IMG/VR virus record: IMGVR_UViG_2713896729_000008
Span: 1-22,993 of that record
DNA: 22,993 nucleotides
DNA from: a virus
Taxonomy: Duplodnaviria; Heunggongvirae; Uroviricota; Caudoviricetes
Reading direction: 5' to 3' (one strand)
The position numbers were made by a program, and so were the translations under genes. This document shows positions 2,246 through 21,730 of this stretch, one piece after another (position 1 is the first letter of the stretch; each line of letters opens with the position of its first letter). Under the pieces are notes generated by a model. That model saw nothing but the letters and a program-made list of their open reading frames with translations, was not told the origin of the DNA and made no database searches.

Positions 2246-2696
2246 GACGGCGCAGTTACATGAGGTTCTGCCTGACGGCGCTGTGATTCATATTGTTCCC
2301 AGAGTCGCCGGGGCCAAGTCAGGGGGCGTATTCCAGATTGTCCTGGGAGCAGCCGCCATTGCCGGATCATTCTTTACCGCCGGAGCCACCCTTGCAGCAT
2401 GGGGGGCAGCCATTGGGGCCGGTGGTATGACCGGCATCCTGTTTTCTCTCGGTGCCAGTATGGTACTTGGTGGTGTGGCGCAGATGCTGGCACCGAAAGC
2501 CAGAACTCCCCGTACACAGACAACGGATAACGGCAAACAGAACACCTATTTCTCCTCACTGGATAACATGGTTGCCCAGGGCAATGTTCTGCCTGTTCTG
2601 TACGGTGAAATGCGCGTGGGGTCACGCGTGGTTTCTCAGGAGATCAGCACGGCAGACGAAGGGGATGGTGGTCAGGTTGTGGTGATTGGTCGCTGA
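2246..2696 (+). CDS. I: lambda-like tail assembly protein gpI, C-terminal fragment
   Basis: Frame open from the gap: TAQLHEVLPDGAVIHIVPRVAGAKSGGVFQIVLGAAAIAGSFF...GGQVVVIGR matches the lambda gpI C-terminus; stop at 2694-2696. Confidence 0.85.
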
Positions 2697-2756
2697 TGCA
2701 AAACATTTTATGTGAAACCGCCTGCGGGCGGTTTTGTCGTTTATGGAGCGTGACGA

Positions 2757-3046
2757 ATGGGTAAAGGCAGCAGTAAGGGGCATACCCCGCGCGAAGCGAA
2801 GGACAACCTGAAGTCCACGCAGCTGCTGAGTGTGATCGATGCCATCAGCGAAGGGCCGGTTGAAGGTCCGGTGGACGGATTAAAAAGCGTGCTGCTGAAC
2901 AGTACGCCGGTGCTGGACAGTGAGGGGAATACCAATATATCCGGCGTCACGGTGGTGTTCCGGACCGGTGAGCAGGAGCAGTCACCGCCGGAGGGATTTG
3001 AATCCTCCGGCTCCGAGACGGTGCTGGGTACGGAAGTGAAATATGA
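2757..3046 (+). CDS. J: lambda-like host specificity / tail tip protein gpJ, N-terminal fragment (cut by gap)
   Basis: MGKGSSKGHTPREAKDNLKSTQLLSVIDAISEGP...VLGTEVKY is the recognisable lambda gpJ N-terminus; gene order I then J preserved. Confidence 0.85.
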
Positions 3047-3056
3047 NNNNNNNNNN
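3047..3056. other. assembly gap (10 N)
   Basis: Run of n. Confidence 0.95.
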
Positions 3057-3391
3057 CACTTTCAAAAGTCCCTGAACTTCCCAACGAATCCGCAATTAAA
3101 TATTCTGCCCATGCGGGGAAGGATGAGAAGCTTCGACCAAGGTTCGACTCGAGCGCCAGCGAGAGAGCGTTGCCGCAGGCAACGACCCGAAGGGCGAAGC
3201 GCGCAGCGCTGAGTAATCCTTCCCCCACCACCATCACTTTTCAAAAGTCCGTAAACTCTCAAACGAATCCGCAATTAAATATTCTGCCCAAGCGGGGAAG
3301 GATGAGAAGCTTCGACCAAGGTTCGACTTGAGCGCCAGCGAGAGAGCGTTGCCGCAGGCAACGACCCGAAGGGCGAAGCGCGCAGCGCTGA
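3057..3391. repeat. tandem direct repeat, two copies of a ~178-bp unit (second copy cut by gap)
   Basis: Copy 1 starts at 3057 (cactttcaaaagtcc...), copy 2 at 3235 (cacttttcaaaagtcc...), near-identical with a few substitutions and a 1-bp indel. Each unit contains a 7-bp-arm dyad cgttgcc-gca-ggcaacg (copy 1 at 3168-3184) and the palindrome cagcgctg. Confidence 0.8.
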
Positions 3392-3401
3392 NNNNNNNNN
3401 N
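3392..3401. other. assembly gap (10 N)
   Basis: Run of n. Confidence 0.95.
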
Positions 3402-3798
3402 AGGAGCCAACTTTTTTATCGTTGACGTAAACATCAAAATTCGCAGCCTGACTCAGCGCATTAATAAATGACACCCAGGCATTGTCACCGTTTCGCCAGC
3501 CAAGGAATGACGGTAAGGGGTACTGGCTGTTATCCATGACGACCGTTATCTCTGTTCCGTCATCGCTGGAATTGACGGAAGTGCCATCAGGCAGGGTGAG
3601 CCAGACGCTGTGTTGCAGAATATTCTGCGCATCCGGATTGCCAGTACAATTCAGATTAAATACCACCTTATCCGGGCTGGTAATGATATATTCGGTCACG
3701 CCCTGACCAAATCCGCTGGTCCACATATTGGGCAGGGCATGGGCTGTTGACGCGGAAGCCAGTATGGCTGCGGTGAGAATACAGTGAGACAGTCTCAT
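3402..3798 (-). CDS. exported protein of unknown function, 3' end lost at gap
   Basis: Minus-strand ORF with a classic signal peptide MRLSHCILTAAILASASTAHA followed by a hydrophilic domain; frame runs into the N-run. The track extension into the tandem repeat (3259-3391) is not credited. Confidence 0.6.
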
Positions 3799-3892
3799 GA
3801 TATTGTCCTTAAGTAATGAATACTGTTAATGTGTTGATAATAGCGATTGCAATTAAACGGTGATGTTCAGCATTCCTTCTGCTGAATAACCA

Positions 3893-4432
3893 TCAGCCAG
3901 TCAGCAGTACCAGTATCAGCGCGACCAGCCAGACCCAGAAGTAAGCCGGTTTCTGACTGAGGGCCTTTGCCCGACGCCACAGATAAAACGGTACCAGCCA
4001 GGCCAGCCAGCCAAAGGCGGTGGTATCCACGCCGGATTTACGGAGCCGCCGTTCATCCAGATATCCCAGCGCAATATTCAGTATCAGCGTGATAAACCAG
4101 TATTGCCCTTCACTTACTGCGGCATACGCTTCCTCAAATTCCATTCCGCTCAGCCCTGCAGTCCATATTTCCAGGGCATACCCAATCAGGGGAGCAAAAG
4201 CCAGCGTCCAGACCACGCCACCGGGGATACGATGGCCGGGGAGCGCGGGGGGAACCGCACTTTGTTTCAGCACTTCTGCGAGCCGTGTAGCTGACAGCGG
4301 CTGCCATTCTGTCATTCCCTGTTGCCATACCAGCGTTGATGCATTCAACTCTCCGCGCTGAATGCGTTCGGTTATGTCGGCTTCGGTCACATTGTCATGA
4401 CGCACGCCATTTTTCTCATAATGCCAGTTCAT
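3893..4432 (-). CDS. membrane protein with N-terminal DUF4339-like (GYF-like) domain
   Basis: 179-aa ORF; N-terminus MNWHYEKNGVRHDNVTEADITERIQRGELNASTLVWQQGMTEWQPLS resembles the DUF4339 fold, followed by hydrophobic segments (WTLAFAPLIGYALEIW, YWFITLILNIALGYL, FGWLAWLVPFYLW, WVWLVALILVLL). Domain name from memory, not verified. Confidence 0.6.
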   Translation of the reverse strand: MNWHYEKNGVRHDNVTEADITERIQRGELNASTLVWQQGMTEWQPLSATRLAEVLKQSAVPPALPGHRIPGGVVWTLAFAPLIGYALEIWTAGLSGMEFEEAYAAVSEGQYWFITLILNIALGYLDERRLRKSGVDTTAFGWLAWLVPFYLWRRAKALSQKPAYFWVWLVALILVLLTG

Positions 4433-4498
4433 TCTTTTCCTTATTTTTTATTCTGTTGAGTGAATACGGGAAGCGTCTCCCGGAGGCCGGGGGTTAGT

Positions 4499-4960
4499 TC
4501 ATTCTTCAAGGTATTCGAAAGAATCGACTGGCCTGCCGTTGTAGTACATCACGACATCGGCCAGTGATTTCCTGTTCTTCAGTTTGACAAAACCTGCACT
4601 GAATGCCTTGCTGCAGTACTGCTCCAGGGACATTTTCGCCGCCGGGACCAGCTCCATGGCATCACCATCAGAACGGTCAACCACACCCCAGATACCGTTG
4701 GGGCATTTCCAGTCGGTGGGGACCATTCTGACGATGGCGACGCGCCCGTTTTCCGATTGCGCGACCACTTCACACATCTTTCGCACCAGCCTGTACTGGT
4801 TACACCAGAAGGGGTTGTTGTGTTTTACATCGCGGATGTAGGCCGGAATGCCGCCTTTGATAGCCCCTGAAAACCACCAGAGACATCAGCATGGGCCGGT
4901 GTCAGTAAATACAGATTCAGGGCTGCAGCAGAGACGACACCTTTCAGCTTATGGCTCATG
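4499..4960 (-). pseudogene. exported protein gene with apparent frameshift (or sequencing error)
   Basis: ATG at 4960 with RBS ggagaa encodes a signal-peptide-like MSHKLKGVVSAAALNLYLLTPAHA and stops after 46 codons near 4822. A second frame is open from 4885 to 4499 (...GGIPAYIRDVKHNNPFWCNQYRLV...YNGRPVDSFEYLEE). The two frames overlap for about 60 nt, consistent with a single indel. The ATG at 4960 overlaps the upstream lipoprotein stop (ATGA). Confidence 0.4.
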
Positions 4961-5411
4961 GGTTGTTCTCCTGATTCTCCGGCAGGTAGAGTTTCCCCAT
5001 TTCCTTGCCATCGTGCGAATACACCACCGATTTCTCACCCGTATAGCTGTCGGTCTCAATCCGGAAGCTCAGGGCGATATTGTCAGCAAGGCACAGGGCG
5101 GCTATCAGCGGCTGCACCGTTTTCTGCTGCATATCGGCAATGTAGTAATAACTGCCGGACTCACAGCCTTCCGGCGACTGGCGGGTTTTCATTACCGTGT
5201 ATTGCGGCGTGCCGAAGGCATCCTTTTTTACCCATTCCTGCACGATGTCGGATTTATGCGCCACCACATCGCTGAACGGTGGTGGAGTCAGGTCCTTAAA
5301 TCGGGCTATCGCTTTCACGCCAGCATCTTCCTTGCTGTCACAACCGGAAACACTGATAGCACTGATAACGGCCAGAACAGTGACAACAATACGCGGGTAT
5401 GTTTTTTTCAT
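4956..5411 (-). CDS. lipoprotein of unknown function
   Basis: 151-aa ORF; signal peptide with lipobox MKKTYPRIVVTVLAVISAISVSGC. Confidence 0.65.
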   Translation of the reverse strand: MKKTYPRIVVTVLAVISAISVSGCDSKEDAGVKAIARFKDLTPPPFSDVVAHKSDIVQEWVKKDAFGTPQYTVMKTRQSPEGCESGSYYYIADMQQKTVQPLIAALCLADNIALSFRIETDSYTGEKSVVYSHDGKEMGKLYLPENQENNP

Positions 5412-5449
5412 GACGTTGATCCCTTGCTGATAATATCGTTTTGACTGCG

Positions 5450-6085
5450 TCAGCAGTTACCGGTACGACGGCATAGCTCAGCAAGACTCTGCTGTGCCAC
5501 CCACTGTTGCAGTTCCCTGTCTTTTTCAGTACGCCGGGCTGCAAGCGCTGCCTGCTGCCGTTTGTTAACACAATTGTCCTTTACCATCATCATGACTTCC
5601 GGCGTGAACTGTTTTTTGAGTTCAGCCGCTTTTTCATCAACATTTTCAACGGCGGGATACTGGTAGAGCAGCTTGTCTTCAACGGCTGTCCAGTAGTTAG
5701 CCATCCGGTCATCAACGACAGCGAAATAACAGCCCTGTCCTTCATTATTGCCCTGATAAATAATCCGGAGATGTAGCGGATATTCGTCACGGGGTTTTAT
5801 ATCAATGTATCTGACCGTCAGGGATTTTTTGTCTGCCAGATAAAGCGAGCCTCCATCTCTGCTGCGAAGAAAAAAGTGATTCGTCCAGGGATAATTGTCG
5901 AGTACAACCGCCTGATAGAGTGCGTTATGCATATGGTTATCATCGTATCCATCAGCGGATTTCCAGCCATCTGCCTGCATGGACTTCCAGGTTCTGACTG
6001 AACCCACGATATTTTCAGCGAGGACCGGGGGCGCTGAGATAATGCTGAGACTGGCGACCAGCGCCGCTGTGATGAGTAATTTCAT
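5450..6085 (-). CDS. exported protein of unknown function
   Basis: 211-aa ORF; signal peptide MKLLITAALVASLSIISAPPVLA; start overlaps the stop of the upstream regulator gene by 4 nt (operon-like). Confidence 0.65.
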   Translation of the reverse strand: MKLLITAALVASLSIISAPPVLAENIVGSVRTWKSMQADGWKSADGYDDNHMHNALYQAVVLDNYPWTNHFFLRSRDGGSLYLADKKSLTVRYIDIKPRDEYPLHLRIIYQGNNEGQGCYFAVVDDRMANYWTAVEDKLLYQYPAVENVDEKAAELKKQFTPEVMMMVKDNCVNKRQQAALAARRTEKDRELQQWVAQQSLAELCRRTGNC

Positions 6086-6795
6086 ACCTGTTCCTTATGG
6101 ATAATCTGCCCGTAACTGTCGTCAGCGAGCAGTGAATGAAAAAGATGAAAATGAGGTAACGCCTGTAAAAAATCCGGGCGTGACAGGATGCGGGTGAAAT
6201 GTCCGTCTGGTGTGAAGGTTTCCGGGTGAAACATCACAGAGTGAACAGTGTGCAGTGCAAAAATGGTTATCCTGCCGAGGTGTTCTCCTGCCAGAAACCA
6301 CTCACCGGAACTGAAAATCAGCCGGTAGGGAGCAAGGCTGTCGCAACGGCACCCGTCAGCCAGGAGGGTTACCCTTCGCTGTTCTGATACCGCCCTGACC
6401 AGTCGGGTGAAGATGCCCGGGCGGGAAGGCGGTATGGGTGCACCCTGATGCCAGATAAGGCATGGTGGGGTGCCCCGACCGCTTAGTAATGAGCTGACCA
6501 GATGGTGGTCCATCTCAGGAAACAGCGCGTCAGTGCCTGACTGACGGGCAAACTGCATTGCTGCCCCGGCCTGAATCTCGTGTCGTCCCCCGCTCAGCAG
6601 ACGGCAGCAGCCATTCTGATATTCGAGGTCGAGATAAATCAGACGCTCGCGGAAATCACGATGCAGGGTACGCTCCGAGACCCCAAACTCCGTCGCCAGT
6701 TTGCGCATATTCAGCGTTTCCCCCGCGAGCAGACGGCTGATAATCAGCGAAAGCCGGACAGACAGGCGGTCATAACGACGCTCAGCCTGAGACAT
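6082..6795 (-). CDS. HTH transcriptional regulator, YfjR-like (CP4-57 prophage family)
   Basis: 237-aa ORF; N-terminus MSQAERRYDRLSVRLSLIISRLLAGETLNMRKLATEFGVSERTLHRDFRER is a DeoR/YafY-type HTH and resembles E. coli YfjR as I recall it. C-terminal ligand domain not verifiable by eye. Confidence 0.7.
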   Translation of the reverse strand: MSQAERRYDRLSVRLSLIISRLLAGETLNMRKLATEFGVSERTLHRDFRERLIYLDLEYQNGCCRLLSGGRHEIQAGAAMQFARQSGTDALFPEMDHHLVSSLLSGRGTPPCLIWHQGAPIPPSRPGIFTRLVRAVSEQRRVTLLADGCRCDSLAPYRLIFSSGEWFLAGEHLGRITIFALHTVHSVMFHPETFTPDGHFTRILSRPDFLQALPHFHLFHSLLADDSYGQIIHKEQV

Positions 6796-7055
6796 GTATT
6801 ATCTCCGTGTTGGGTAAGTGATTAATTAAGAAGGTATTACTGTAAAGGATGAGACTGACAGGTTATGTCCGTGATACGTTGCGAAGCGCCTGGCGCGAAA
6901 AGGCCGTCTGGGTGCCCTGTTGGCAGCAGTAACGCGCTTATGACCGGTGGTATCTTTTGCTGGTGCAGACAGGTTATGTCTGCCACATAAAAATCATCTG
7001 CCGGATGATGAATAAACAGAGTCATTCACTACAGTCCTGATGACCTTTTACTCAT

Positions 7056-7931
7056 TCAGAAGAAGACCCAGTCCCAGACCGCGCGGGCTACAGACACCAC
7101 AGCATCACGCACGGTACGTATCACCGTCTTCAGCGGCGCAGGCAGGAATGACGATGATTCTGCCGTATCGAACACCAGCCCCACCGCCTCACCGAAGCCG
7201 TCACGGGCCTGCGACTTTACCGGCTCCGTGCAGAGCCTCCCGTGCAACTGTGTCGCCAGCGGGCTGGTGGCGCGGTCCGGAAGACAGCGCATCATGGTGC
7301 CCACCATCTCCTCAGTGCCCCATCCGGCCAGCGCGGACACCATGCAGACAGGATGATGTGGTTTAAACATCGCGGTAATGGCTACCTGCTTTTCCTGAAG
7401 ATTTGCCCATTGCTGTGCTGAAGGCGTGCTGGTTCGGGTATCCCATTCGTGGCAGGGTTCTATTTTGTCGGCCTGGTTAATCACGAACAACACCTGCTGC
7501 TGGTAAGGCTGCATCACGCCGCGCCAGAAATGCTCGTCCACCGACAGCGCCCGGTCATCGGCCTTAATGACCCACAACACCAGGTCCAGCTCCGGCAGCA
7601 TACGCCGGTACAGGGCGCGGTATTCCTGGTCCCGTTGTCCGTTTTCGCCCACGCCCGGCAAATCAACAATCACCAGACTGTGACGCCCGCTGCGTAGCCG
7701 GAAGCGCAGCACGGCACGGGTGCAGGCGTTCACATCACTGACGGCGGAGACTTTCCCCCGAAAGAGTTCGTTACAGAGCGACGACTTACCGACACCACTC
7801 TTGCCCATGATGCCAATCACCGGCTCGTAGTGGGTCAGATTCTGAATACGTTCAAGAATAAGCTGGCGAAGCGTATCGGGAAGCGACGACAGCGGTTGTT
7901 CAAGGGCCTGAAGGCCGTGTGGTTTAGTCAT
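7056..7931 (-). CDS. YfjP/YkfA/YeeP-family small GTPase (prophage-island GTP-binding protein)
   Basis: 291-aa ORF with G1 GIMGKSGVGKSS, G3 DLPGVGE and G4 NQADK motifs; size and motifs fit the cryptic-prophage GTPase family of E. coli. Confidence 0.75.
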   Translation of the reverse strand: MTKPHGLQALEQPLSSLPDTLRQLILERIQNLTHYEPVIGIMGKSGVGKSSLCNELFRGKVSAVSDVNACTRAVLRFRLRSGRHSLVIVDLPGVGENGQRDQEYRALYRRMLPELDLVLWVIKADDRALSVDEHFWRGVMQPYQQQVLFVINQADKIEPCHEWDTRTSTPSAQQWANLQEKQVAITAMFKPHHPVCMVSALAGWGTEEMVGTMMRCLPDRATSPLATQLHGRLCTEPVKSQARDGFGEAVGLVFDTAESSSFLPAPLKTVIRTVRDAVVSVARAVWDWVFF

Positions 7932-7948
7932 AAAGGATTCTCAGCGTG

Positions 7949-7989
7949 AAAAACAAAAATCCCCGCACTCCGGTCAGGGAGGCGGGGGA
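7949..7989 (-). terminator. candidate rho-independent terminator (minus strand)
   Basis: On the minus strand, a GC-rich imperfect hairpin (cccgcctcc ... ggagtgcggg) is followed by gatttttgttttt, about 60 nt downstream of the stop of the 8054-8881 gene. Confidence 0.45.
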
Positions 7990-8053
7990 TTCACGAAGAT
8001 AATATCTGTCTGAGATTATTTCGAATGAAGCTTATTGCTTCTGCCATATCACT

Positions 8054-8881
8054 TTATGATTGCCGTGATTGACTCTTCGCATCATTAAAAGCATTGTTAA
8101 TCAGTTCGTTAAGAATTTCCTTCGATGTGGTCTTCTCTACATGCGCAATAAACTCAAGTTTTTTTTGAGCCGCTTTGGTCAACTTCACAGCAGCTGGTTC
8201 CTTAGCTCTTCTGGCTCTTCTTTCCTTTTGCTCCCATGCATTTTTAAGCTCATCAAGAAGAATATCTTTATGATTTTTATTGATGCCATTTTCCGGCATG
8301 ATGCCATGTCCAAGAAACTTTCCTTTATTACGCCTTTTATTTTTGCCGTTAAGATAAGATTCCTGCTCGGTAGTCCATCCTTTCCAGTTATCAAAAATAG
8401 CAAAGATAAAATAATATTTCTCTTTATTATCATGTGGTTTTAATGGAATGCCTAAGCATCGTTCCTGCATTTGTTGCCATAACCACTGGCATTGAGTTTC
8501 ATCTTTGCTGTTAACCCATGAAAAAGGTGCTGGGTAAAGGGCGTACTGGTGACGCCATTCGATATCTATAGATGAGATTAAATTTGATATTTTTTGAGGC
8601 TTTTTTACGAAGGTTATCAACAGGTGTACGAATAAAGAAAAGCCAACGTTTCTCTCTGAGACATCCTTAATTCTTTTAAAAAGTAACCCGTTTGCATTTC
8701 TGATATTTTCAGGTGGAATTTTATCGGTCTTTTCTTTTTTATCTTGTTTACAGGTACTAAGGTTTATTTTCTCCGGGGACGAGAATGCGGAGGAAGAAGT
8801 TTTATTTTTAGCATCAATAGTACTGGATTGTTTATCAATAGTATCCACTAACTCAGCAGGAAGAGTCTGCGACCACGGCAT
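8054..8881 (-). CDS. hypothetical protein in AT-rich DNA, K/R-rich C-terminus
   Basis: 275-aa ORF in a visibly AT-rich stretch; no motif I recognise. C-terminal third is strongly basic (KNKRRNKGKF..., KERRARRAKEPAAVKLTKAAQKK). Confidence 0.5.
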   Translation of the reverse strand: MPWSQTLPAELVDTIDKQSSTIDAKNKTSSSAFSSPEKINLSTCKQDKKEKTDKIPPENIRNANGLLFKRIKDVSERNVGFSLFVHLLITFVKKPQKISNLISSIDIEWRHQYALYPAPFSWVNSKDETQCQWLWQQMQERCLGIPLKPHDNKEKYYFIFAIFDNWKGWTTEQESYLNGKNKRRNKGKFLGHGIMPENGINKNHKDILLDELKNAWEQKERRARRAKEPAAVKLTKAAQKKLEFIAHVEKTTSKEILNELINNAFNDAKSQSRQS

Positions 8882-8980
8882 AATATCGCGGGAAGGCTGA
8901 GTATATTGACTGGTGGATATAGGGTGATGCTGCCAACTTACTGATTTAGTGTATGATGGTGTTTTTGAGGTGCTCCAGTG

Positions 8981-8990
8981 NNNNNNNNNN
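8981..8990. other. assembly gap (10 N)
   Basis: Run of n. Confidence 0.95.
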
Positions 8991-9200
8991 GATGCTTATA
9001 TCGCAATAACTCCTGACACCTCAATATTACATATGGCAAGTGCCTATAATACCCCTGTTGTTGCAATTTATGCTGATTACAAAACGCGATGGCCCGCAAT
9101 GGCCGATGTCTCGGAGTCAGTCGTCGTTGGGCAAAAAATTGACAATATAAGTCTGGATGAATTCGCAAAGGCATTAAAAAGTGTTTTGGCGAGAATATGA
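8991..9200 (+). CDS. glycosyltransferase family 9 (heptosyltransferase-like) C-terminal fragment
   Basis: Frame open from the gap: DAYIAITPDTSILHMASAYNTPVVAIYADYKTRWP... resembles the conserved C-terminal nucleotide-sugar-binding segment of LPS heptosyltransferases. Confidence 0.5.
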   Translation, partial: DAYIAITPDTSILHMASAYNTPVVAIYADYKTRWPAMADVSESVVVGQKIDNISLDEFAKALKSVLARI

Positions 9201-9461
9201 GACAGTACTTATGCATAGTAATGCCGATCTGTTATGAACGGTGGTGTCATCAATACTCTGAGGCTGGTCAATCATCACAGAAAACCAGCCTTTAGATCAA
9301 AGCAGTACTCACCGAAAATGATCATAGTCACATCGAACGCGATTCTGGCGGTGCCGCATTTTTATTTATTCATTTTCTGTGAGAGAAGGGCTAGTTCTGT
9401 AGAGGGAATGTAAAAAAGAGTGCCCCGAATGGAACACTCTTTAAGAAATTATAACGGAAAA

Positions 9462-10317
9462 TCACAGGTTTTTATAACATGTCGCATAAGAAAACCCAAG
9501 CTTTTCAAATACGCTTTGATCACCTGTTGCCAGGGAAACTACGTATTGTTCGCTTGAGTTTGCGGGACTAGATGACCAATACATATTTGATTGAAAACCA
9601 GCGTCAGTCGTGTAATGCCCCATATCTCCCCATTCACTGTACAGTGACCCGATGCCTCGGGAACTACAGTGGTTTAAATAGTTTGCTCTGGGGAGCGTGT
9701 AGCCATTGCTGCTGCAAAAATTTTCAGCAAGGCTGTATATCATGAAAGCCTCGCCGGCGTTCACCCACCAACTCTTCACACGGATTTCGTATACATAGCT
9801 AGGGCCTCCTGATTTTGGCGTCGCCGTAATCCTTTCCGAATTGCTGCCGACATTTTTAAATGTCACTTTACCGGTAGCATCAACATCGACCCAGGAGGCA
9901 GAGCTTGAAAACTCATAATCAGCCGCCGTTTTTCCTGGGGCAAAGTTGTCATTATTCAACTGATAATACGCCCCGGTGAACCCCTGCGAAGGGAATGTAG
10001 TTGTCGGTAGGTCAGTACCATTGACTGATACTGTACCGCTCATTATTTTGTCTTCTGCGCGAGTGAATTGTATTGTGGTACTCAGACCAGCTTGATGAAC
10101 ACCATTCAATACAGGGATCAGCGTTGCGATACCCTCTCCGCCTCCTGTAACAGTGGCTTTGTAATCACCGTTGATATTTAGACTGTAATCAATTGCGCTA
10201 ATTTTTATATAGGGCACGTTAGTACCTGATTGCACAAATTCCATCCCTTCAGAAACTTTGATCGGATTGCCTGATATATCGTGCAGAACAAGACGTAATT
10301 CAGCACTATCGGTATAG
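9462..10317 (-). pseudogene. invasin/intimin-family adhesin, C-terminal portion, 5' end truncated by IS3
   Basis: Minus-strand frame is open from the stop at 9462 right up to the IS3 terminus at 10318 with no credible start (track starts at an internal Met, 10244). Contains a beta-rich Ig-like segment and a Cys-containing C-terminal domain (...NFCSSNGYTLPRANYLNHCSS...SYATCYKNL) reminiscent of invasin/intimin lectin-like domains. Confidence 0.5.
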
Positions 10318-10347
10318 TGATCCTACCCACGTAATATGGACACAGGC

Positions 10348-11214
10348 CTAAGCGAGGTTCTTGTTTTCAAATTGTTCCGGACTGAGGCCGCCACACCAAC
10401 TGTGCCGCCGCCACCGATTGTAATCACATTCGATATAATTAAACACCGTTGCCCGCATTATTTCCCGGCTGATAAAGTGTTCTCCATGGATACATTCCAC
10501 TTTCAGCGAATGAAAGAAGCTTTCCACGCAGGCATTATCGTAGCAGCAACCTTTTGCGCTCATACTTCCACGCAGATTATGCCGCTTCAGTTGCGCCTGA
10601 TAATCTGCTGAACAGTACTGGCCTCCACGGTCCGTGTGAACGATAACGTTCCGGGGCCTCTTACGCCGCCACAGCGCCATCTGCAGGGCATCGCAGGCCA
10701 GTTGCGCCGTCATGCGTGGCGACATTGACCAGCCAATAACGGCACGTGACCACAGGTCAATGACCACTGCCAGATACAGCCAGCCTTCATCTGTACGTAA
10801 GTACGTGATGTCTCCTGCCCACTTCTGGTTCGGGCCACTGGCGTAAAAATCCTGCTCCAACAGATTTTCTGACACAGGCAGGCCGTGTGCGCGGTAGCTG
10901 ACCGGGCTGAACTTCCGGGAGGCCTTTGCCCTCAGTCCCTGACGGCGCAGGCTTGCCGCCACGGTTTTTACGTTAAAGGGGTAACCCTGAGCACGCAGTT
11001 CATCCGTCAGGCGTGGGGCACCGTAACGCTGTTTTGACCGGGTAAAAGCCGCGAGGACAACGCTGTCGCAGTGTTGGCGGAACTGCTGACGCGTGCTTAT
11101 CCTTGTCCGCCGCTGACACCACGTATACCAGCCGCTGCGGGCCACCCGGAGCACGCGGCACATTGCTTTTATGCTGAACTCAGCCTGATGTTTTTCAATA
11201 AAGACATACTTCAT
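10348..11214 (-). CDS. insF: IS3 OrfB (InsF), DDE transposase catalytic region
   Basis: 288-aa [32 protein letters not shown]...[12 protein letters not shown] is recognisable as IS3 InsF; overlaps orfA by 4 nt. Confidence 0.85.
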
Positions 11215-11510
11215 TTCAGGCGCTTCGCGAAGTATGTCGCGGCCTTTTGGAGGATAGCCAGCTCTTCATCCCGTTCTGCCAGCTGGCGTTTGAGACGTGC
11301 AATCTCGGTAGACATCTCCAGTTCACGTTCAGAAGACGTCTGCTGATTTTGCTGTTTACTGCGCCAGTTGTAGAGTTGTGATTCATACAGGCTGAGTTCA
11401 CGGGCTGCGGCAGTAACACCGATGCGTTCAGCAAGCTTCAGGGCTTCACTGCGAAATTCAGGCGAATGCTGTTTACGGGGTTTTTTACTGGTTGATACTG
11501 TTTTTGTCAT
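11211..11510 (-). CDS. insE: IS3 OrfA (InsE), transposase N-terminal HTH protein
   Basis: [32 protein letters not shown]...ATYFAKRLK is recognisable as IS3 InsE; the track ORF begins two in-frame codons-plus upstream at 11519. Confidence 0.85.
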
Positions 11511-11575
11511 GTGAGTCACCTCTGACTGAGAGTTTACTCACTTAGCCGCGTGTCCACTATTGCTGGGTAAGATCA

Positions 11576-11902
11576 CTGAACCAGTGGGATGCGCTGTGCT
11601 ACTACTGTGAAGATGGCCTGGCAGAGCCTGATAACAACGCTGCCGAACGAGCCCTTCGTGCCGTCTGTCTTGGGAAAAAGAATTTTATCTTCTTCGGCAG
11701 CGACCACGGTGGTGAGCGCGGAGCCCTGCTGTACGGACTGATCGGGACGTGCAGGCTGAATGGTATCGATCCGGAAGCCTACCTTCGCCATATCCTGAGC
11801 GTACTGCCGGAGTGGCCCAGCAACAAAGTGGCCGAACTGCTGCCATGGAACGTGGTTCTTACCGATAAATAACCGTCAATACGGCGCTCACTTAACGCTT
11901 AC
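11576..11902 (+). mobile_element. IS66-family element remnant: transposase (TnpC) C-terminal 98 codons plus probable terminal repeat
   Basis: Frame open from the first base after IS3: ...DNNAAERALRAVCLGKKNFIFFGSDHGGERGALLYGLIGTCRLNGIDPEAYLRHIL...ELLPWN, stop at 11870-11872. This is the conserved IS66 TnpC C-terminal signature. The sequence ...cgcttac ending near 11902 is the reverse complement of the GTAAGCG IS66-type terminus. Confidence 0.75.
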
Positions 11903-12075
11903 AATTGGCGTTAGTGTTAGACATATATTCAAGCCTATCTCTTATCTGGAGATACAGCTACTGTCTGGTGTTTCAGGGGGCTACATTAGTAACAATCCTG
12001 ACACTGAGGGCATCAGGTCTTTCTTCAATCTCACACTCCGATTATCTGAGCAAAAATTTCTCTATATTTAGTGCA

Positions 12076-12103
12076 TTTACAAATATATCTGATTTCGTAA
12101 ACT
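12076..12103 (+). promoter_or_regulatory. candidate sigma70 promoter for the defence operon
   Basis: TTTACA (12076-12081), 16-bp spacer, TAAACT (12098-12103), in an AT-rich 270-bp intergenic region upstream of the SNF2 gene. By-eye hexamer match only. Confidence 0.25.
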
Positions 12104-12176
12104 AGATTTCAGAATTGAAAATTGGTTCTGAAAAAGGTAGACCAGTTTAGAACCTGAGCTGATTACAGGAAATGGA

Positions 12177-14027
12177 ATGGTTTATTCGATAAAACACGGC
12201 ATTGTCGAGCAGGACGGGTGTCCAATCGATCCCGAATTGCTTTTTAGACTTGGCAAATTTGTAGCTGAGGCTAGAGACAGCGAAACTACTTTGGTCATCT
12301 CAAAACGCCCAGCTGAACTGAAATTCCGGTTCAGCCATGAACCAGCGCCTTCATTCAGATTGTTTTTCAGGGAGGTAGAGCTTACTCCTGATCAGGTGAA
12401 TTCTTTGGTGGAATACGGTTATTTTATTGCTGATGGCAAGCGGGTGTATTTTGTCAGTGACAGACTTAAGGATTTCTCCGTATCTGCCTGCAACAAGCTG
12501 TCACTCCCCGGATTGCTCAAACTACTTCGCAAACTATACAATGATGGACTTATTGACGCTCTTCCATCATCCCTTGTAGAGAAGCTCAGGGCACAGCAGC
12601 AGAAAATATCACTCCACGATAAACTCTTTGTCAGGGAACTCTACCCCTACCAGAATGAAGGTGTTGCATGGCTGACCTTCTGTGCAGCCAACGGTGTGGG
12701 TACCATCCTTGCCGATGATATGGGTCTGGGTAAGACTGCTCAAGTAATTGCCCTGTGCTGCGATGTTCTCGAACACAATCCTGAAGGTAGGATCCTTATT
12801 GTTGTTCCCAATCCTCTGCTGGCCAACTGGATCAGAGAATTTTCTTTTTTTGCTCCTTCACTCAGACCTTTTCTCCATTATGGGCAGAACAGGAGCGGTC
12901 TCAGTTCAGATCTTTCCGAGCACAATATAATTGTTACTCCCTATACCGTATTGAGTTCCGATATTTCGATGCTGGAAGAAATCCCGTTTGACCTTGTACT
13001 TTATGATGAAGCCAGTATGCTGAAAAATCCTCAGTCGGGCAGATCTCTTGCAGCAAGACGTCTTGATTCTGTTGCTTCCGTTGCAATGTCGGGAACTCCT
13101 GTCGAGAACTGCCTTCTTGACGTCTGGGCTCTCTGTGACCTGGTTTTCCCCGGTTTTCTCGGAAACGAGCAGGATTTCAGATCTCGTTATGTCCATCGCG
13201 AACTGTCCAAAACGCTCAATACGGATCTACACGGGCTTGAAAACAGTCTCCGGCAGATAACCCTGCGACGTATGAAAAAAGATGTCCTGACACAGCTGCC
13301 TGAAAAAATGGATATTCACAGAGCTGTTACCGCAGGAGACAAGGAACGAAATACCTATGAATCCATCATTGAGGAGATGCAGCAGGATGCGGCAAAAGGA
13401 GGAGGAGGTATGCTACCCCTGATCAACAAACTACAGCAGTTTACTGCACATCCGGCTCTTCTAGATCCGAGCATACCCCATGATGTCAAATCCCTATGCC
13501 TCCACAGCGCCAAATTCGAACTACTGATGATGGAACTGGACGGCATAGAACAATCCGGAGAAAAAGTCATCATCTTTGCCACATTCCAGAAGGCAATCGA
13601 TCTGCTAGGTGCTGCAGTTAGGGAACGTTATGGCATCACCCCAGGAGTGATTGACGGACGGACTCCAAATGAACAACGGCAGCCGCTGATTGACAGATTT
13701 TCCAAATCGTCCGGATTCGATCTGCTGCTGTTGCACCCTAAAACAGCCGGTATGGGGCTAAATATCACCGCTGCCACCAATGTAATCCATTATTGCCGAC
13801 AGTGGAATCCGGCCCTTGAGGCACAGGCTACGGCAAGAGCATGGAGAAACGGACAGAAATCTGTGGTTAGCGTTTACTACATGTATTACGCGGATACTGT
13901 CGAAGAAATGATCGATGAACGGATACGAATGAAACAGAAGCTTAGCGAGCAGGTTGTTGCAGTGGCCGACTATAAAGAAACAGACAAACAGCTGATGCTG
14001 GAATATTTGGAATCGATAAAAAAATGA
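12177..14027 (+). CDS. SNF2-family helicase-like ATPase
   Basis: 616 aa; RBS aggaaa upstream of ATG. Motif I LADDMGLGKT, motif II LVLYDEASMLKN, motif III MSGTPVEN, motif V GMGLNITAATNV, motif VI QATARAWRNGQ. N-terminal ~150 aa without recognisable motif. Confidence 0.9.
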   Translation: MVYSIKHGIVEQDGCPIDPELLFRLGKFVAEARDSETTLVISKRPAELKFRFSHEPAPSFRLFFREVELTPDQVNSLVEYGYFIADGKRVYFVSDRLKDFSVSACNKLSLPGLLKLLRKLYNDGLIDALPSSLVEKLRAQQQKISLHDKLFVRELYPYQNEGVAWLTFCAANGVGTILADDMGLGKTAQVIALCCDVLEHNPEGRILIVVPNPLLANWIREFSFFAPSLRPFLHYGQNRSGLSSDLSEHNIIVTPYTVLSSDISMLEEIPFDLVLYDEASMLKNPQSGRSLAARRLDSVASVAMSGTPVENCLLDVWALCDLVFPGFLGNEQDFRSRYVHRELSKTLNTDLHGLENSLRQITLRRMKKDVLTQLPEKMDIHRAVTAGDKERNTYESIIEEMQQDAAKGGGGMLPLINKLQQFTAHPALLDPSIPHDVKSLCLHSAKFELLMMELDGIEQSGEKVIIFATFQKAIDLLGAAVRERYGITPGVIDGRTPNEQRQPLIDRFSKSSGFDLLLLHPKTAGMGLNITAATNVIHYCRQWNPALEAQATARAWRNGQKSVVSVYYMYYADTVEEMIDERIRMKQKLSEQVVAVADYKETDKQLMLEYLESIKK

Positions 14028-15622
14028 CAGATAAAATTGAATTACAGGAAAATGATTTCCGCCCTTCTGCTGCGAGGCTGGTCGAAAGCCTCCGTGATAC
14101 GGGATACAGTGAAAAAGCGGCATTTGCTGACATTGTAGACAATTCAATAGCAGCTAATGCTACGAAAATTGCCATCGAGCTCCAATATCTAATGGGTGAG
14201 TTCCGAGTAGTCATTACCGATAACGGTGATGGAATGACTGAGTCCGAGCTGAAGAATGCGATGCGGTACGGTTCCGAAAAACGGCCGAATCCGAAGTCAC
14301 TGGGCAAATTCGGAATGGGGCTGAAAACTGCGTCTACGGCATTCTGCCGTAGACTGGTGGTACTTTCACAGAAAGAAGGAACTGCAGTAGGCCGTATCTG
14401 GGATCTCGATACCATCAGTGAAAAAGATCGCTGGGAACTCGAGACCCCAGATGAAAACGACTATTACGACGATTTCGAAGTTCTTGAGGATTTCTCCGGA
14501 AATTCAGGCACCATGATTGTCTGGGAAAAAATTGATCGTCTGATCAAGCCAGGCAGCGATAGACAGATGCTTGATCAGATCCGGACCCTCGGTAAGGAAC
14601 TTGTTGACGAACTGAGTGCCGTCTTTTTCAAATATCTTTCCTCCGGAAACGTAGAAATTTCACTCAAAATTGCGGATGAACCCGAAATCCTTCTCCAAGG
14701 ATGGGATCCCCTGTCTACTGAACTTGTTACCAGTGGCGGGGCCCGTCCCCAGCTCTTGAAAGAAAAGAAAATCCGCGTCGAGTTCAACGGAAACAGCTAT
14801 TCTTTCACAATCAGAGGAAGCCTGATTCCATCGCAGAATGAGCTGACTGCGGAAGAGCAGGAGGCTGTGAGATACGGATTGGATAACCAAGGGTTCTATA
14901 TCTATCGAGAAGACCGGTTGATATGGAATGACGGCTGGCCTCACCGAATGTATAAAAAGGAAGGTAAGATCACCCGTCTGCGTGTCGAGCTGGTTTTCTC
15001 CCATGAACTTGATGATGTATTCAGTATCGATTTCCGCAAAAGCCGAGTGATAATCCCTGTTGAAATCCGTAGGGAACTGCAGTCGCTGATTGCTCCATGG
15101 CGTCAGGCACTACTTTCCGTTCCGTCAAAAAAACAATCTGAACAGTCCGGTTCGACACGTGCACATGGTCCTGCTGATAATGCGATAGATAAGCAGAAAA
15201 ACCGTACAAAAAACTCCGATATAAAGGTTGATGGCGAAACAGTTACTATCAGAAACCAGAACCAGCCCAAACCTGCAGTAATCAACGATATACGCGTCTA
15301 TGAGGACAAGACTGTCAGGGTTCACGAAGAAAACTCCCTGATGGGTGACAATCTCTGGGAACCGTCATGTGACATTGATGGAAACACCTGCGTAACACTT
15401 GGGAAGTCGCATCCATATTTCCTGAGAATGTATGATGTCTGCAAGGACAATGTAGAAGCCATGAAAGCTCTCGACATGCTTCTGTGGAGCCTTGCAAATG
15501 CCGAACATGGTGAATACTCAGAAGCGAACAAGCACACCCTGAAAGGATTCCGCCAGAAGGTCAGTGAGAGTCTTCGTTATCTCAGCCTTGAACTGCCGGA
15601 TCCGGAAGAGGATTCAGAATGA
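14024..15622 (+). CDS. GHKL (Bergerat-fold) ATPase, MutL/MORC-like
   Basis: 532 aa; ATG overlaps the SNF2 stop (ATGA). N-box DIVDNSIAANATKIAIEL (compare MutL ELVENSLDAGAT), G1 box VITDNGDGM, G2 box GKFGMGLK. C-terminal ~300 aa unassigned. Confidence 0.85.
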   Translation: MTDKIELQENDFRPSAARLVESLRDTGYSEKAAFADIVDNSIAANATKIAIELQYLMGEFRVVITDNGDGMTESELKNAMRYGSEKRPNPKSLGKFGMGLKTASTAFCRRLVVLSQKEGTAVGRIWDLDTISEKDRWELETPDENDYYDDFEVLEDFSGNSGTMIVWEKIDRLIKPGSDRQMLDQIRTLGKELVDELSAVFFKYLSSGNVEISLKIADEPEILLQGWDPLSTELVTSGGARPQLLKEKKIRVEFNGNSYSFTIRGSLIPSQNELTAEEQEAVRYGLDNQGFYIYREDRLIWNDGWPHRMYKKEGKITRLRVELVFSHELDDVFSIDFRKSRVIIPVEIRRELQSLIAPWRQALLSVPSKKQSEQSGSTRAHGPADNAIDKQKNRTKNSDIKVDGETVTIRNQNQPKPAVINDIRVYEDKTVRVHEENSLMGDNLWEPSCDIDGNTCVTLGKSHPYFLRMYDVCKDNVEAMKALDMLLWSLANAEHGEYSEANKHTLKGFRQKVSESLRYLSLELPDPEEDSE

Positions 15623-16542
15623 ATTATGAATACGATCTGGCCGATTTCAAACGTTACCTTTACGACAAAAACCACAGTTACAGGGTAGATGGACTGATTT
15701 TCTGGCAGAACAGGATTCCGTTGCCGATTGACCTGTTCAATCGAATATTCGATGAATCAGATCTGATAATTGCAGATTTTGTTTATCAGGTAGCAGCAAG
15801 CGCTGCCGTTTTCAGCGAAAAAGAGTCATTCGAGAGTACCTTCGGGCTGGAAGTGACAAATCTTCCAACCGACAAGCTTAAAGCGGAAATACCAGCACTG
15901 TCCACGTGGGTGGATGAACATCTGCCTGAAAATTGCAGAATTGTCCGTATGATATATGAAATCGCGGAGCTTCTGGGCCTTTCAGAGTTCAGGTTTTCCG
16001 GTGATAGGATCGCAAAATCGCTTGCTCACCAAGGGAAAAAGTATGCCCGTCTATTCATGCCGAGTCCGGTAAAGGATCTGGTGAACAACATTCAGGGATG
16101 TGACACCATCGGGCAGGACAATACTGACATGTTCGGTAATATCATTGCCGACCGTTATAATATTTACCGTTCAGGTTTCAGTGATGCCTTGGCTATCATA
16201 TTCAATGCCCTACTCGAATTTAGGCTCCTGTTTTCTGGAAAAAGCGGCAATCTGCCTAGATTTAGGGTAATGATGACTGCTCCTGACGACATCGATATTC
16301 GTTTCGGTAAAACAGCCGACGGTTCATTGTGGGAACCTGGTTACGGGGACGATCATTTCATTACCATCAATACTGAACATCCCGTGATGAAAAATCAGGC
16401 GAAAGACCAGGGCTGTGCACTGGCCGAATTGCTGTTTTTTATGGGGCAGTATGAAAACTCTCAGTTTTCGGACCAGAACAAGAAATTTATTGAAAACATG
16501 CGACAGACAATATCCAGAAATCTCTGGATCAAGTATGACTAA
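15619..16542 (+). CDS. hypothetical protein, operon partner of unknown function
   Basis: 307 aa; ATG overlaps the GHKL stop (ATGA); same strand and frame-coupled inside the operon; no motif I recognise. Confidence 0.7.
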   Translation: MNYEYDLADFKRYLYDKNHSYRVDGLIFWQNRIPLPIDLFNRIFDESDLIIADFVYQVAASAAVFSEKESFESTFGLEVTNLPTDKLKAEIPALSTWVDEHLPENCRIVRMIYEIAELLGLSEFRFSGDRIAKSLAHQGKKYARLFMPSPVKDLVNNIQGCDTIGQDNTDMFGNIIADRYNIYRSGFSDALAIIFNALLEFRLLFSGKSGNLPRFRVMMTAPDDIDIRFGKTADGSLWEPGYGDDHFITINTEHPVMKNQAKDQGCALAELLFFMGQYENSQFSDQNKKFIENMRQTISRNLWIKYD

Positions 16543-16569
16543 TTTTTCTCATGCAAGGACGGGACAAGT

Positions 16570-18510
16570 ATGCTTTCAGAACTGGATATGGTGATGAACT
16601 GGTTCAAAAATGAACCTGAATCGGCATGGCAATTCGATGAGATCGGATTCGATGATGAAACAAGAACGGTTCTATCAACAACCGGACTGACATTGCTGGA
16701 CCATACAGCACGGATGAAAACTGGAAGCGGGTATCACTGTTATATACCATGCCAGTATCTGATGTATATGCTAAAGATTGGGCCATTTGTAAGACTACTG
16801 GACAACTACATCTCTGTATTCGAAGAAATCAAAAAAAATATGTTTCCGGCAGAATTCGAAGCAATGATCGAAAGCGGAACGTCAAACGAGCAGGCGCTCG
16901 TTTCGCTGGACATCTACAGCCGCAGTAACTTTTTCTGGGCTTTCAAAGATCCCAGAACAAGACTTGAGGCAAAAAATCTAATAAACACGAGCTCAAAAAC
17001 TGGGAAAAAGAGTTATAGGCAATCCGATGATTTTGTCAAATCGGTCTTGCTGGCATCATTGCCGGTCCCGAATGTAAGCTCGGAAACACTCGGTACCCTG
17101 ATTCTTGATCTGGTGCGTTCTCAAGAAACATATGATTACCTTCAAAGGAGATATATGCCCAGTCTTCCTTATATGTTCAGTGTTCCTGATGGGGATGAAC
17201 TGCTGTTCAGAATAATGACAACCATTGGCTGGTCCGGTCAGTTTGAGCCTTTACTGGGGACTGACCCCGATGCCGAATTTGTTTCATGGAATGATATAGA
17301 CAGGGCATTTCTTCTCCGCCCATCCAGGGAACCCGGCAATGCGCTGTATGTCCAGAATCCCGTCCATTTTTCTGTTCCGCTGGAGAAATATATTTTCATC
17401 AGAAAGGGTCTCTTGGATACTCCCGATTCACTTGAAAAAATATCGGTTCTGGTTTCCGGTTTATGGCTGGGGATGAGTATCCGGAACAGAGAGGGCAAGT
17501 TCTTTTTCGAGTCATCGACCAGAGCCTCCGTATCCGGACCTAGAGTGACCGGTGGAACGAACAGAATCTTCTATGGGGCACCCGGTACGGGAAAAAGCTA
17601 CAGGGTCCATGGTGAAATGAGTGACGGTGCAGAAAAGATTGTCACAGTTTTCCATCCTGATACTCAGCATAACGATTTTGTCGGTGCCCTGAAGCCTAAA
17701 ATGGAAAAGAATGAACAGGGAGAAAGCAGCATAACCTACAGTTTCAGACCAGGCCCCTTTACCTGCGCACTCATACTGGCCATTGCTCGTCCAGACAGAA
17801 AGGTCTGTCTCATTATCGAAGAAATCAACCGTGCTTCTGCTGCAGCTGTCTTCGGCGAGCTTTTCCAGCTTCTAGACAGGGAGCCTGATGGAACGAGTAC
17901 CTACAGCATCAATGCCACTGATCCGGATATGATCGAGTATATAAATACGGAACTAGGTACTATGGGATGTACTCCTGTCGATAGCTTACGGATCCCGTCC
18001 AATATGTCTCTACTGGCTACCATGAACAGCAGTGATCAGGCAGTTATGCCGCTGGATACTGCATTCAAACGGCGCTGGAATTTCGAATATCTACCAATCG
18101 ATTTATCAAAACCGGAGATCCCACAAACCGAAATCGTTTTCACCACCAATTCAGGAAAATATTCGGTACTCTGGCGCGATTTTGCTCAAATTATTAATGA
18201 CACCCTTGTCGAATGTGAAATAGCAGAGGATCGTCTGATCGGCCCGTTTTTCCTAGATTCTAAAGAACTGGAAAATAGGGAAGCAGCGAAAGCTGCCCTT
18301 GGCGGAAAACTGTTCATCTATTTGTGGGATGATGTGCTGAGACATGTCGGACACCAGAAAATATTTGCGTCTACCTTCAGAACGTTCGGCAACCTATCTG
18401 CAGCATTTCGCAATGACATGGCTGTTTTCTCCACTGCCGTAGAGAACAGACTTGAAGGGGTGGGCACTCCTGTTGACATGAACAGGGATCCGCAAGATGT
18501 TGCCAGCTGA
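16570..18510 (+). CDS. McrB-like AAA+ GTPase with unrelated N-terminal domain
   Basis: 646 aa. C-terminal half has Walker A RIFYGAPGTGKSY, Walker B CLIIEEINRASAAAVFGELFQLLDRE (McrB DEINRA-type signature) and MSLLATMNSSDQ...DTAFKRRW. N-terminal ~330 aa has no resemblance I can see to the E. coli McrB DNA-binding domain. Confidence 0.85.
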   Translation: MLSELDMVMNWFKNEPESAWQFDEIGFDDETRTVLSTTGLTLLDHTARMKTGSGYHCYIPCQYLMYMLKIGPFVRLLDNYISVFEEIKKNMFPAEFEAMIESGTSNEQALVSLDIYSRSNFFWAFKDPRTRLEAKNLINTSSKTGKKSYRQSDDFVKSVLLASLPVPNVSSETLGTLILDLVRSQETYDYLQRRYMPSLPYMFSVPDGDELLFRIMTTIGWSGQFEPLLGTDPDAEFVSWNDIDRAFLLRPSREPGNALYVQNPVHFSVPLEKYIFIRKGLLDTPDSLEKISVLVSGLWLGMSIRNREGKFFFESSTRASVSGPRVTGGTNRIFYGAPGTGKSYRVHGEMSDGAEKIVTVFHPDTQHNDFVGALKPKMEKNEQGESSITYSFRPGPFTCALILAIARPDRKVCLIIEEINRASAAAVFGELFQLLDREPDGTSTYSINATDPDMIEYINTELGTMGCTPVDSLRIPSNMSLLATMNSSDQAVMPLDTAFKRRWNFEYLPIDLSKPEIPQTEIVFTTNSGKYSVLWRDFAQIINDTLVECEIAEDRLIGPFFLDSKELENREAAKAALGGKLFIYLWDDVLRHVGHQKIFASTFRTFGNLSAAFRNDMAVFSTAVENRLEGVGTPVDMNRDPQDVAS

Positions 18511-19771: not shown

Positions 19772-19883
19772 AAAGATTCGGACTATGCCCAGAAATGTCG
19801 ATAGACATGAGACCCCCTCATTGATTGATCATCCGTACAGTGATACTATCGCCGGGAATAAAACCGGATAAGGTGAGCATGGG

Positions 19884-21200: not shown

Positions 21201-21540
21201 TGACCCTGCAGTGGAAGAAAATGTCGTGATGTGATGCCCCCTTTCCTGAAGCAGCCAATGTAATACTGCCACAGTTTGCGTTTGCTATGGGAGTAAATCA
21301 CATCACTACATATGTAGCCTTTTCATTATCACAATATTCCTCAGTGTTAGACTGAATACTGCGCCATCCACTTCCTATCTGATGGCTTCACCACTTTTTT
21401 GCCAATCTAAGAATCCCAGCAAAACGGCCCATCCACTTTTAGAGATCTTCCGACTGATCTTGACCCGCCATCTCCGGACAGCTTTTGTAGCTAAAATTAA
21501 CGATGCTCGCTGCCGCCGGTATTCTCTCGGAAAGACATAT

Positions 21541-21563
21541 CCCACCCGCACAGTGCGGGTGGG
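21541..21563. repeat. 23-bp perfect palindrome between convergent methyltransferase and integrase genes
   Basis: cccacccgcac-a-gtgcgggtggg: 11-bp arms, single-base centre; no flanking T-run on either strand. Confidence 0.6.
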
Positions 21564-21730
21564 AGACTGATTTAGTCATCATCTTTCCTGTCTCTATTTT
21601 CTTCCTAACTGGCATCTAGGCTACAAAGATAAACTTCCGCCTATGGAACAGAGCTGCCTGCAGATTAGGTTTAGCTCTGTGCCAGAGCTGTGTCAGATCA
21701 AATCTGAGCTAATATATTTAAACACATATG

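Follow-up and report, generated by a model that had tools for sequence, protein, structure and literature searches.

Two repeat units in a gap-bounded contig

The window analysed here, a stretch of 22,993 nucleotides catalogued as a viral record (Caudoviricetes; IMG/VR IMGVR_UViG_2713896729_000008), is a scaffold interrupted by runs of ten N at positions 1692-1701, 2236-2245, 3047-3056, 3392-3401 and 8981-8990. The gaps at 3047-3056 and 3392-3401 enclose a contig of 335 bp (3057-3391), which holds two repeat units in tandem on the + strand. Unit 1 (3057-3233) is present with 177 of its 178 bp, the contig beginning one base inside the unit, and unit 2 (3234-3391) with 158 of 179 bp, its 3' 21 nt being lost to the gap. 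Tandem Repeats Finder delimited the array at 3060-3391, with a period of 179, 1.9 copies and 95% matches without indels (score 615), and in a pairwise alignment the two units were identical at 149 of 156 positions, with seven substitutions and one 1-nt indel. Each unit consists of a 5' spacer of around 58 nt, rich in C and poor in G (C/G about 3, GC about 0.4), followed by a GC-rich 3' core of around 120 nt; in unit 1 the spacer (3057-3114, +) has a C/G ratio of 3.2 and a GC content of 0.43, compared to 0.64 in the core. Six of the seven substitutions and the indel fall in the 5' 60 nt or so of the unit, that is, in the spacer, and the sole core substitution between unit 1 and unit 2 is a C to T change at 3329, equivalent to 3150 in unit 1.

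Two elements of dyad symmetry are found in each core as exact matches on the + strand. The hairpin CGTTGCC-GCA-GGCAACG (3168-3184 in unit 1, where it corresponds to a helix of the Rfam model discussed below, and 3347-3363 in unit 2) occurs exactly twice in the window, once per unit, with none expected from shuffled sequences. The palindrome CAGCGCTG (3204-3211 and 3383-3390) is also present once per unit, along with two unrelated sites in the window (280 and 1657), for an expectation of 0.5. A previous description of this contig from its letters alone, to which we refer as the sequence-only reading, had pointed out an isolated piece made of two near-identical tandem repeats of about 178 bp, each with one hairpin with 7-bp arms and one CAGCGCTG palindrome, all of which is confirmed by these results.

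When the window was scanned with Rfam, both units matched RF00391 (RtT RNA) above its gathering score of 45 bits, and no matches beyond RtT were obtained in the window. The match to unit 1 spans 3102-3233 and covers the whole model (1-130 of 130) with 137.5 bits and an E value of 2e-30, with no non-canonical pairs flagged, while that of unit 2 (3281-3412, 83.7 bits) has its 3' end aligned to the N run and unrelated sequence, the closing stem being lost because its 3' strand is removed by the gap. Positions 3063-3233 (+), with the full-length RF00391 match, are the equivalent of the 171-nt RtT RNA gene rttR (b4425) of K-12, with 171 of 171 positions identical. The 3'-terminal 19 nt of unit 1 (AATCCTTCCCCCACCACCA, 3215-3233, +) are the same as the final 19 nt of tRNA-Tyr, both in the reference locus L001 and in K-12, and constitute the 3' tail by which tRNA-linked repeats (TLRs) are defined. 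These repeats were first described by Egan and Landy (1978, as cited in PMC8144298), later references including Rudd (1999); K-12 harbors 22 of them at ten loci, their 3' 18-19 bp reproducing the 3' end of the upstream tRNA or rRNA (PMC8144298). One repeat unit of the tyrT operon encodes rttR (PMC3318445), in vitro transcription data indicate that the tyrT transcript includes rttR and tpr (PMC3141248), and RefSeq describes each RtT of strain ATCC 8739 as 'processed from tyrT transcript'. The sequence-only reading could place the repeat in no known family, a view that does not hold: through its RF00391 and rttR matches the unit belongs to a well-known intergenic repeat family, the RtT sRNA / tyrT tRNA-linked repeats, which is curated in Rfam and annotated in RefSeq. 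The correct label for 3057-3391 is RtT sRNA / tyrT-operon tRNA-linked repeat, instead of unknown repeat; the feature is already known and already annotated.

Probable place in the tyrT-tyrV operon and copy number

A megablast search with the 335-bp piece led to the tyrT array, the piece being matched in 4726 of the 5426 complete E. coli genomes searched. There were 238 records matching at 99% identity or more and, among the matches listed, at least 20 complete genomes were 100% identical over the 335 bp, junction included, with the annotation 'RtT sRNA (x2)'. The order of elements in ATCC 8739 is purU, tRNA-Tyr, RtT, tRNA-Tyr, four RtT units and narI. The units of this four-unit array measure 178, 178, 178 and 179 bp, and 3057-3391 is 100% identical to the distal two of those located 3' of the second tRNA-Tyr; the piece maps to positions 2501-2835 of L001. 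Taken separately, unit 1 is identical (177/177) to the unit that comes third behind the second tRNA-Tyr of ATCC 8739 and to the one that immediately follows tyrV in K-12, and unit 2 (158/158) to the final unit of the ATCC 8739 array. The annotation of the locus in K-12 MG1655 comprises tyrT, tyrV, rttR (b4425) and tpr (b1229), with ychS on the opposite strand, and the location of RtT matches in complete genomes is compatible with a single array. A search for tRNA genes over the whole window found none, and because the window contains neither these genes nor the flanks of the operon, the operon context is drawn from the 100% identity to complete genomes. On this evidence, 3057-3391 is almost certainly a fragment of the 3' trailer array (tRNA-linked repeats, RtT RNA genes) of the E. 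coli tyrT-tyrV operon.

The finding of a 335-bp, gap-bounded contig amid unrelated contigs in a scaffold could suggest that the two units arose when a single-copy sequence was duplicated or mis-joined during assembly. We give this explanation, which the sequence-only reading had contemplated, practically no credit: the units differ at seven positions plus the indel, and the exact two-unit sequence, with its junction, is found at 100% identity in many complete genomes, within a four-unit array. Because that junction is present in complete genomes, the contig faithfully reproduces part of a larger array and does not derive from a duplication during assembly. Another of the earlier guesses, a collapsed array whose copy number is hidden by the gap, turned out to be right in that the piece is part of a longer array; the complete genomes with a 100% match have four to five units. 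The contig illustrates how this array interrupts short-read assemblies, and the window lacks both the proximal units and the tRNA-Tyr genes.

Copy number varies widely. Using one unit as query, between 1 and 14 places were detected per complete E. coli genome, with a median of 3, and about 13% of the complete genomes (around 685 of 5426) had no detectable unit even in sensitive mode, so that the array is dispensable. The highest count, 14 places, corresponds to one genome; 18-21 places were counted on plasmids. Unequal recombination between units would lead to changes in copy number, and such instability fits the losses inferred by Skippington and Ragan.

Two further observations concern the array in reference loci. 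The K-12 gene ychS (b1228; L002, 1210-1485) is an open reading frame antisense to repeat units 2-3, its translation being that of the repeat in reverse frame; a ychS-like reverse frame is also present in 3057-3391, and ychS is probably a spurious gene call. In L001, a REP-like element is located just 3' of the array (about 2944-2975), outside the unit.

The rest of the tyrT locus was also sought in the window, and no tRNAs, no further Rfam matches and only unrelated mobile-element DNA as neighbours were found, so the order of contigs in the scaffold is uninformative with respect to the context of the repeat. The stretches 1-1691, 2246-3046 and 3402-8980 consist of mobile-element DNA with no relation to tyrT. 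They comprise a primase-helicase zinc-binding/DUF5375 region, a lambda-J-like tail gene of which the start is present, at 2758, and a CP4-57-like island carrying genes for GTPase, WYL and DUF4339 proteins and YfjS/YafY lipoproteins. Two mechanically called open reading frames extend from the repeats across N10 gaps: one at 2757-3212 (+) fuses the N-terminus of the lambda-J-like tail protein to the tpr frame, and another at 3259-3798 (-) links the next contig to the repeat read in reverse. These two are artefacts of the scaffolding, and mechanical reading frames that pass through 3057-3391 and over the gaps are to be disregarded. The last piece of the scaffold (8991-22993, 14 kb) begins with an adhesin locus disrupted by an insertion sequence (8991-11576), in which an IS3-family transposase gene (10348-11214, -) lies within the locus, with a yeeJ/invasin-like adhesin fragment and a glycosyltransferase family 9 gene nearby. 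It continues, at 11600-22993, with a putative integrase-linked restriction/defence island, where Pfam assignments identify a SNF2 helicase (12177-14027), a HATPase_c_3 protein (14024-15622), a reading frame without family assignment (15619-16542), an AAA_5/McrB-like ATPase (16570-18510), a LlaJI-type restriction endonuclease (18497-19771), a C5 cytosine methylase (19884-21200) and a tyrosine integrase (21731-22993, -). A place covering at least 80% of this piece was found in none of the 5426 complete E. coli genomes, so this gene combination looks uncommon among them; the best places among the matches listed cover the first 2.6 kb, approximately.

Fold and reading frame across Enterobacterales

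A degenerate pattern derived from the conserved core was used to retrieve arrays from other bacteria. It identified arrays in many Enterobacterales genera, among them Salmonella, Klebsiella, Citrobacter, Kosakonia, Buttiauxella and Phytobacter, and also Mangrovibacter, Pectobacterium, Sodalis, Acerihabitans, Edaphovirga and Serratia. In all 18 Enterobacterales loci sampled, the units were located directly 3' of tRNA-Tyr(GUA), on the same strand. One or more units scored above the Rfam threshold at 17 of these loci, the exception being Serratia (L007), with a short variant below it. Pattern matches outside the enterobacteria (Clostridia, Acidobacteria, Planctomycetota and others) were single matches and were discarded as due to chance.

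Some of these loci depart from the usual arrangement or length. In Sodalis sp. RH13 (L055, 4452-5260) two RtT units lie within an operon with the order tRNA-Thr, tRNA-Tyr, RtT, RtT, tRNA-Gly, tRNA-Thr, a context of the tyrU type, not the tyrT type, so that the repeat goes with tRNA-Tyr whatever the operon. Shortened RtT-like units, with a period of about 132-140 bp, were found in Cedecea colo (L014, 2553-3272; 45.7 bits) and Dryocola sp. BD586 (L054, 2687-2973; 45.4 bits), with scores at the threshold of 45, and another in Serratia fonticola (L007, 4265-4426) gave no Rfam match. These shortened units would constitute a truncated variant of the family, largely missed by Rfam annotation.

A consensus structure was obtained with RNAalifold from 25 aligned units of 17 genera, three of the units being from E. 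coli. The structured RtT core in unit 1, according to both Rfam and this consensus, extends over 3115-3225 (+), closed by a stem between GGGGAAGGA (3115-3123) and TCCTTCCCC (3217-3225). The consensus agrees with the Rfam model, and 6 of its 28 predicted pairs show double compensatory changes, some of them in the hairpin; compensatory changes are seen both in the hairpin and in a neighbouring helix. The arms of the hairpin covary, reading CGATGC/GCATCG in Acerihabitans, CGTCGC/GCGACG in Sodalis and CAATGC/GCATTG in Pectobacterium. When a single 171-nt RNA was folded, the minimum free energy was -51 kcal/mol, no more stable than that of shuffled sequences (z = -1.06); because this single-sequence fold is uninformative, support for the structure is taken from the covariation and the Rfam model only. 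The segment CTTCGAccAAGGTTCGA was also considered as a remnant of the tRNA-Tyr T-arm, with the unit being a tRNA half plus an insertion, and this idea was rejected, with a local alignment score of 17 that was equalled in 129 of 1000 shuffles.

These data bear on the nature of the symmetries. The presence in each unit of a perfect 7-bp inverted repeat and an 8-bp palindrome made it conceivable that they are operator-like sites bound by proteins at the DNA level, one of the options raised in the sequence-only reading. Yet the substitutions in the inverted repeat are compensatory, its arms still pairing although their sequence changes, as is characteristic of an RNA stem, and because pairing is kept in this way we consider the hairpin to be such a stem and not a DNA operator. 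The CAGCGCTG sequence, in turn, is not palindromic in most other genera, where it typically reads GAAGCGACG, and since the palindrome is not kept it is probably incidental. A DNA-binding role of these symmetries is thus extremely improbable. Another early proposal, that of a structured non-coding RNA locus, finds support in the Rfam match to RtT and the compensatory base changes.

The core also overlaps a short reading frame. In unit 1, positions 3123-3212 (+) correspond to tpr, annotated as a 29-aa 'protamine-like protein' and identical to b1229 of K-12. The statement in the sequence-only reading that the piece encodes nothing credible is therefore at odds with annotation, the frame of unit 1 being K-12 tpr and the unit itself an annotated ncRNA gene. 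An array of tandem genes for a tiny basic peptide, Tpr being the conserved functional product, would be favoured by this intact, ATG-initiated frame of 29 codons, and such a protein was proposed by Altman et al. (1981, Cell 26:299, as cited in PMC11623569). However, the tpr-like frame of unit 2 (3302-3391, +) is interrupted by an in-frame TGA at codon 10 (3329-3331; MRSFDQGST*), and the only core substitution, the C to T change at 3329, leaves a U-G wobble where unit 1 has a predicted C-G pair, thereby preserving the pairing in the RNA while destroying the reading frame. Across the 25 units of 17 genera, 17 have a stop at codon 6, 3 have ACG in place of the start codon, and indels of 1-3 nt shift the frame among aligned units; the test for reading-frame conservation among homologous units thus revealed no conserved tpr frame. 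We regard the peptide as very unlikely to be the product for which the array is maintained. Because the fold covaries and the tpr frame is not conserved, the conserved entity is the RNA. The linkage to tRNA-Tyr, the covariation of the fold and the lack of conservation of the frame are, as far as sequence comparison goes, consistent with selection on the RNA, a result that is not new in kind.

Expression, possible function and relation to known elements

The way in which RtT units are produced can be outlined with reasonable, if not full, confidence. The tyrT promoter, which is strong and subject to growth-rate regulation, would drive transcription of the array together with both tRNAs, as the literature indicates or as may be deduced from the locus; a strong promoter-like site, TTTACA-16-TATGAT with a TG, is present upstream of the first tRNA in L001. 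Because the units share the final 19 nt of the tRNA, each of them would be released by the tRNA 3'-end machinery, with a cut by RNase E and exonucleolytic trimming to the stem/CCA freeing one stable RtT RNA of about 171 nt per unit. Release via a shared 3' end has been discussed for 5S-linked TLRs (PMC8144298). A search for intrinsic terminators on the + strand within and after the array in L001 yielded none. Transcription may end by Rho-dependent termination inside the array, with the C-rich, unstructured spacers as plausible Rho loading sites. In the window this role could correspond to the spacer at 3057-3114, which is largely unpaired in the Rfam model and in the consensus structure and may act as a rut-like Rho loading region. 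Rho termination within the tyrT repeats was reportedly observed by Kupper et al. in 1978 and by Rossi et al. in 1981.

With respect to function, we take RtT to be a structured RNA whose production is proportional to the transcription of tRNA-Tyr and whose role is modulatory at most. The sole published phenotype, as presented in PMC8144298, is the stringent-response claim of Bosl and Kersten (1991), which according to the same source was later withdrawn, the phenotype being attributed to a neighbouring open reading frame; the 1991 work is cited in PMC3318445 for the co-transcription and processing of rttR. A 2024 preprint lists the mode of action of RtT as unknown.

An alternative with the same identity for the locus, and differing in function alone, is that RtT acts in trans, as a regulatory RNA or tRNA mimic reporting the rate of tRNA-Tyr transcription; it could be a sponge or decoy for tRNA-processing enzymes, Hfq, CsrA or some other tRNA-Tyr-binding factor. 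The conservation of the fold with compensatory changes across families of Enterobacterales, the strict linkage to tRNA-Tyr, maintained even in the Thr-Tyr-RtT-RtT-Gly-Thr operon of Sodalis, and the in vitro binding of Hfq and CsrA by the related 5S-linked TLRs RrA/B/F (PMC8144298) would all be in line with such an activity. However, a predictor of CsrA binders gives the 19 TLRs of tRNA operons scores below 0.01 and TLRs are reported as having no known function (PMC8144298), the stringent-response claim was withdrawn, and the absence of units in about 13% of complete E. coli genomes, together with a copy number of 1 to 14, also argues against it. A trans-acting role is therefore a tentative idea that we consider rather unlikely. 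A CsrA/Hfq sponge by analogy with RrA/B/F was in particular set aside, given the predictor score below 0.01 for all the tRNA-operon TLRs, and is retained as a low-probability alternative. The broader proposition that RtT is a conserved, trans-acting RNA module travelling with tRNA-Tyr in Enterobacterales, more than a by-product of processing, seems doubtful to us; if true, RtT could, for instance, be a decoy bearing a tRNA-Tyr acceptor end and titrating a tRNA-binding or RNA-processing factor in proportion to the growth-rate-dependent transcription of tyrT. The function of TLRs, which were discovered more than 45 years ago, is a question that the window does not advance; to that of a trans-acting role it adds one more copy of RtT and nothing else.

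Compared with the RtT/rttR gene (RF00391, b4425) and the overlapping tpr (b1229) of K-12, unit 1 shows no difference, either in the 171 nt of the RNA or in the 29-aa Tpr, whereas unit 2 is the distal 179-bp variant of ATCC 8739-type arrays, absent from K-12, here truncated by the gap and with a stop in the tpr frame. Nor is 3057-3391 different in kind from TLRs, the RtT array being the founding member of that family. The 5S rRNA-linked TLRs (rrA, rrB, rrF) copy the 3' end of 5S rRNA, whereas the tyrT units copy that of tRNA-Tyr, and the binding to Hfq and CsrA shown in vitro for the former is not predicted for TLRs of tRNA operons (PMC8144298). 3'ETS-leuZ, one of the 3' external transcribed spacer sRNAs of tRNA operons, is likewise an RNA that the tRNA-processing machinery frees from a tRNA precursor (PMC8144298), but it is a single short spacer with demonstrated activity as an sRNA sponge, whereas RtT is larger, tandem and structured, with a tRNA-like 3' end and without demonstrated targets. 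Finally, REP/BIME and ERIC elements are also non-coding enterobacterial repeats with dyad symmetry, but they measure 35-130 bp and are dispersed over hundreds of intergenic sites, whereas RtT is confined to the trailer of tRNA-Tyr.
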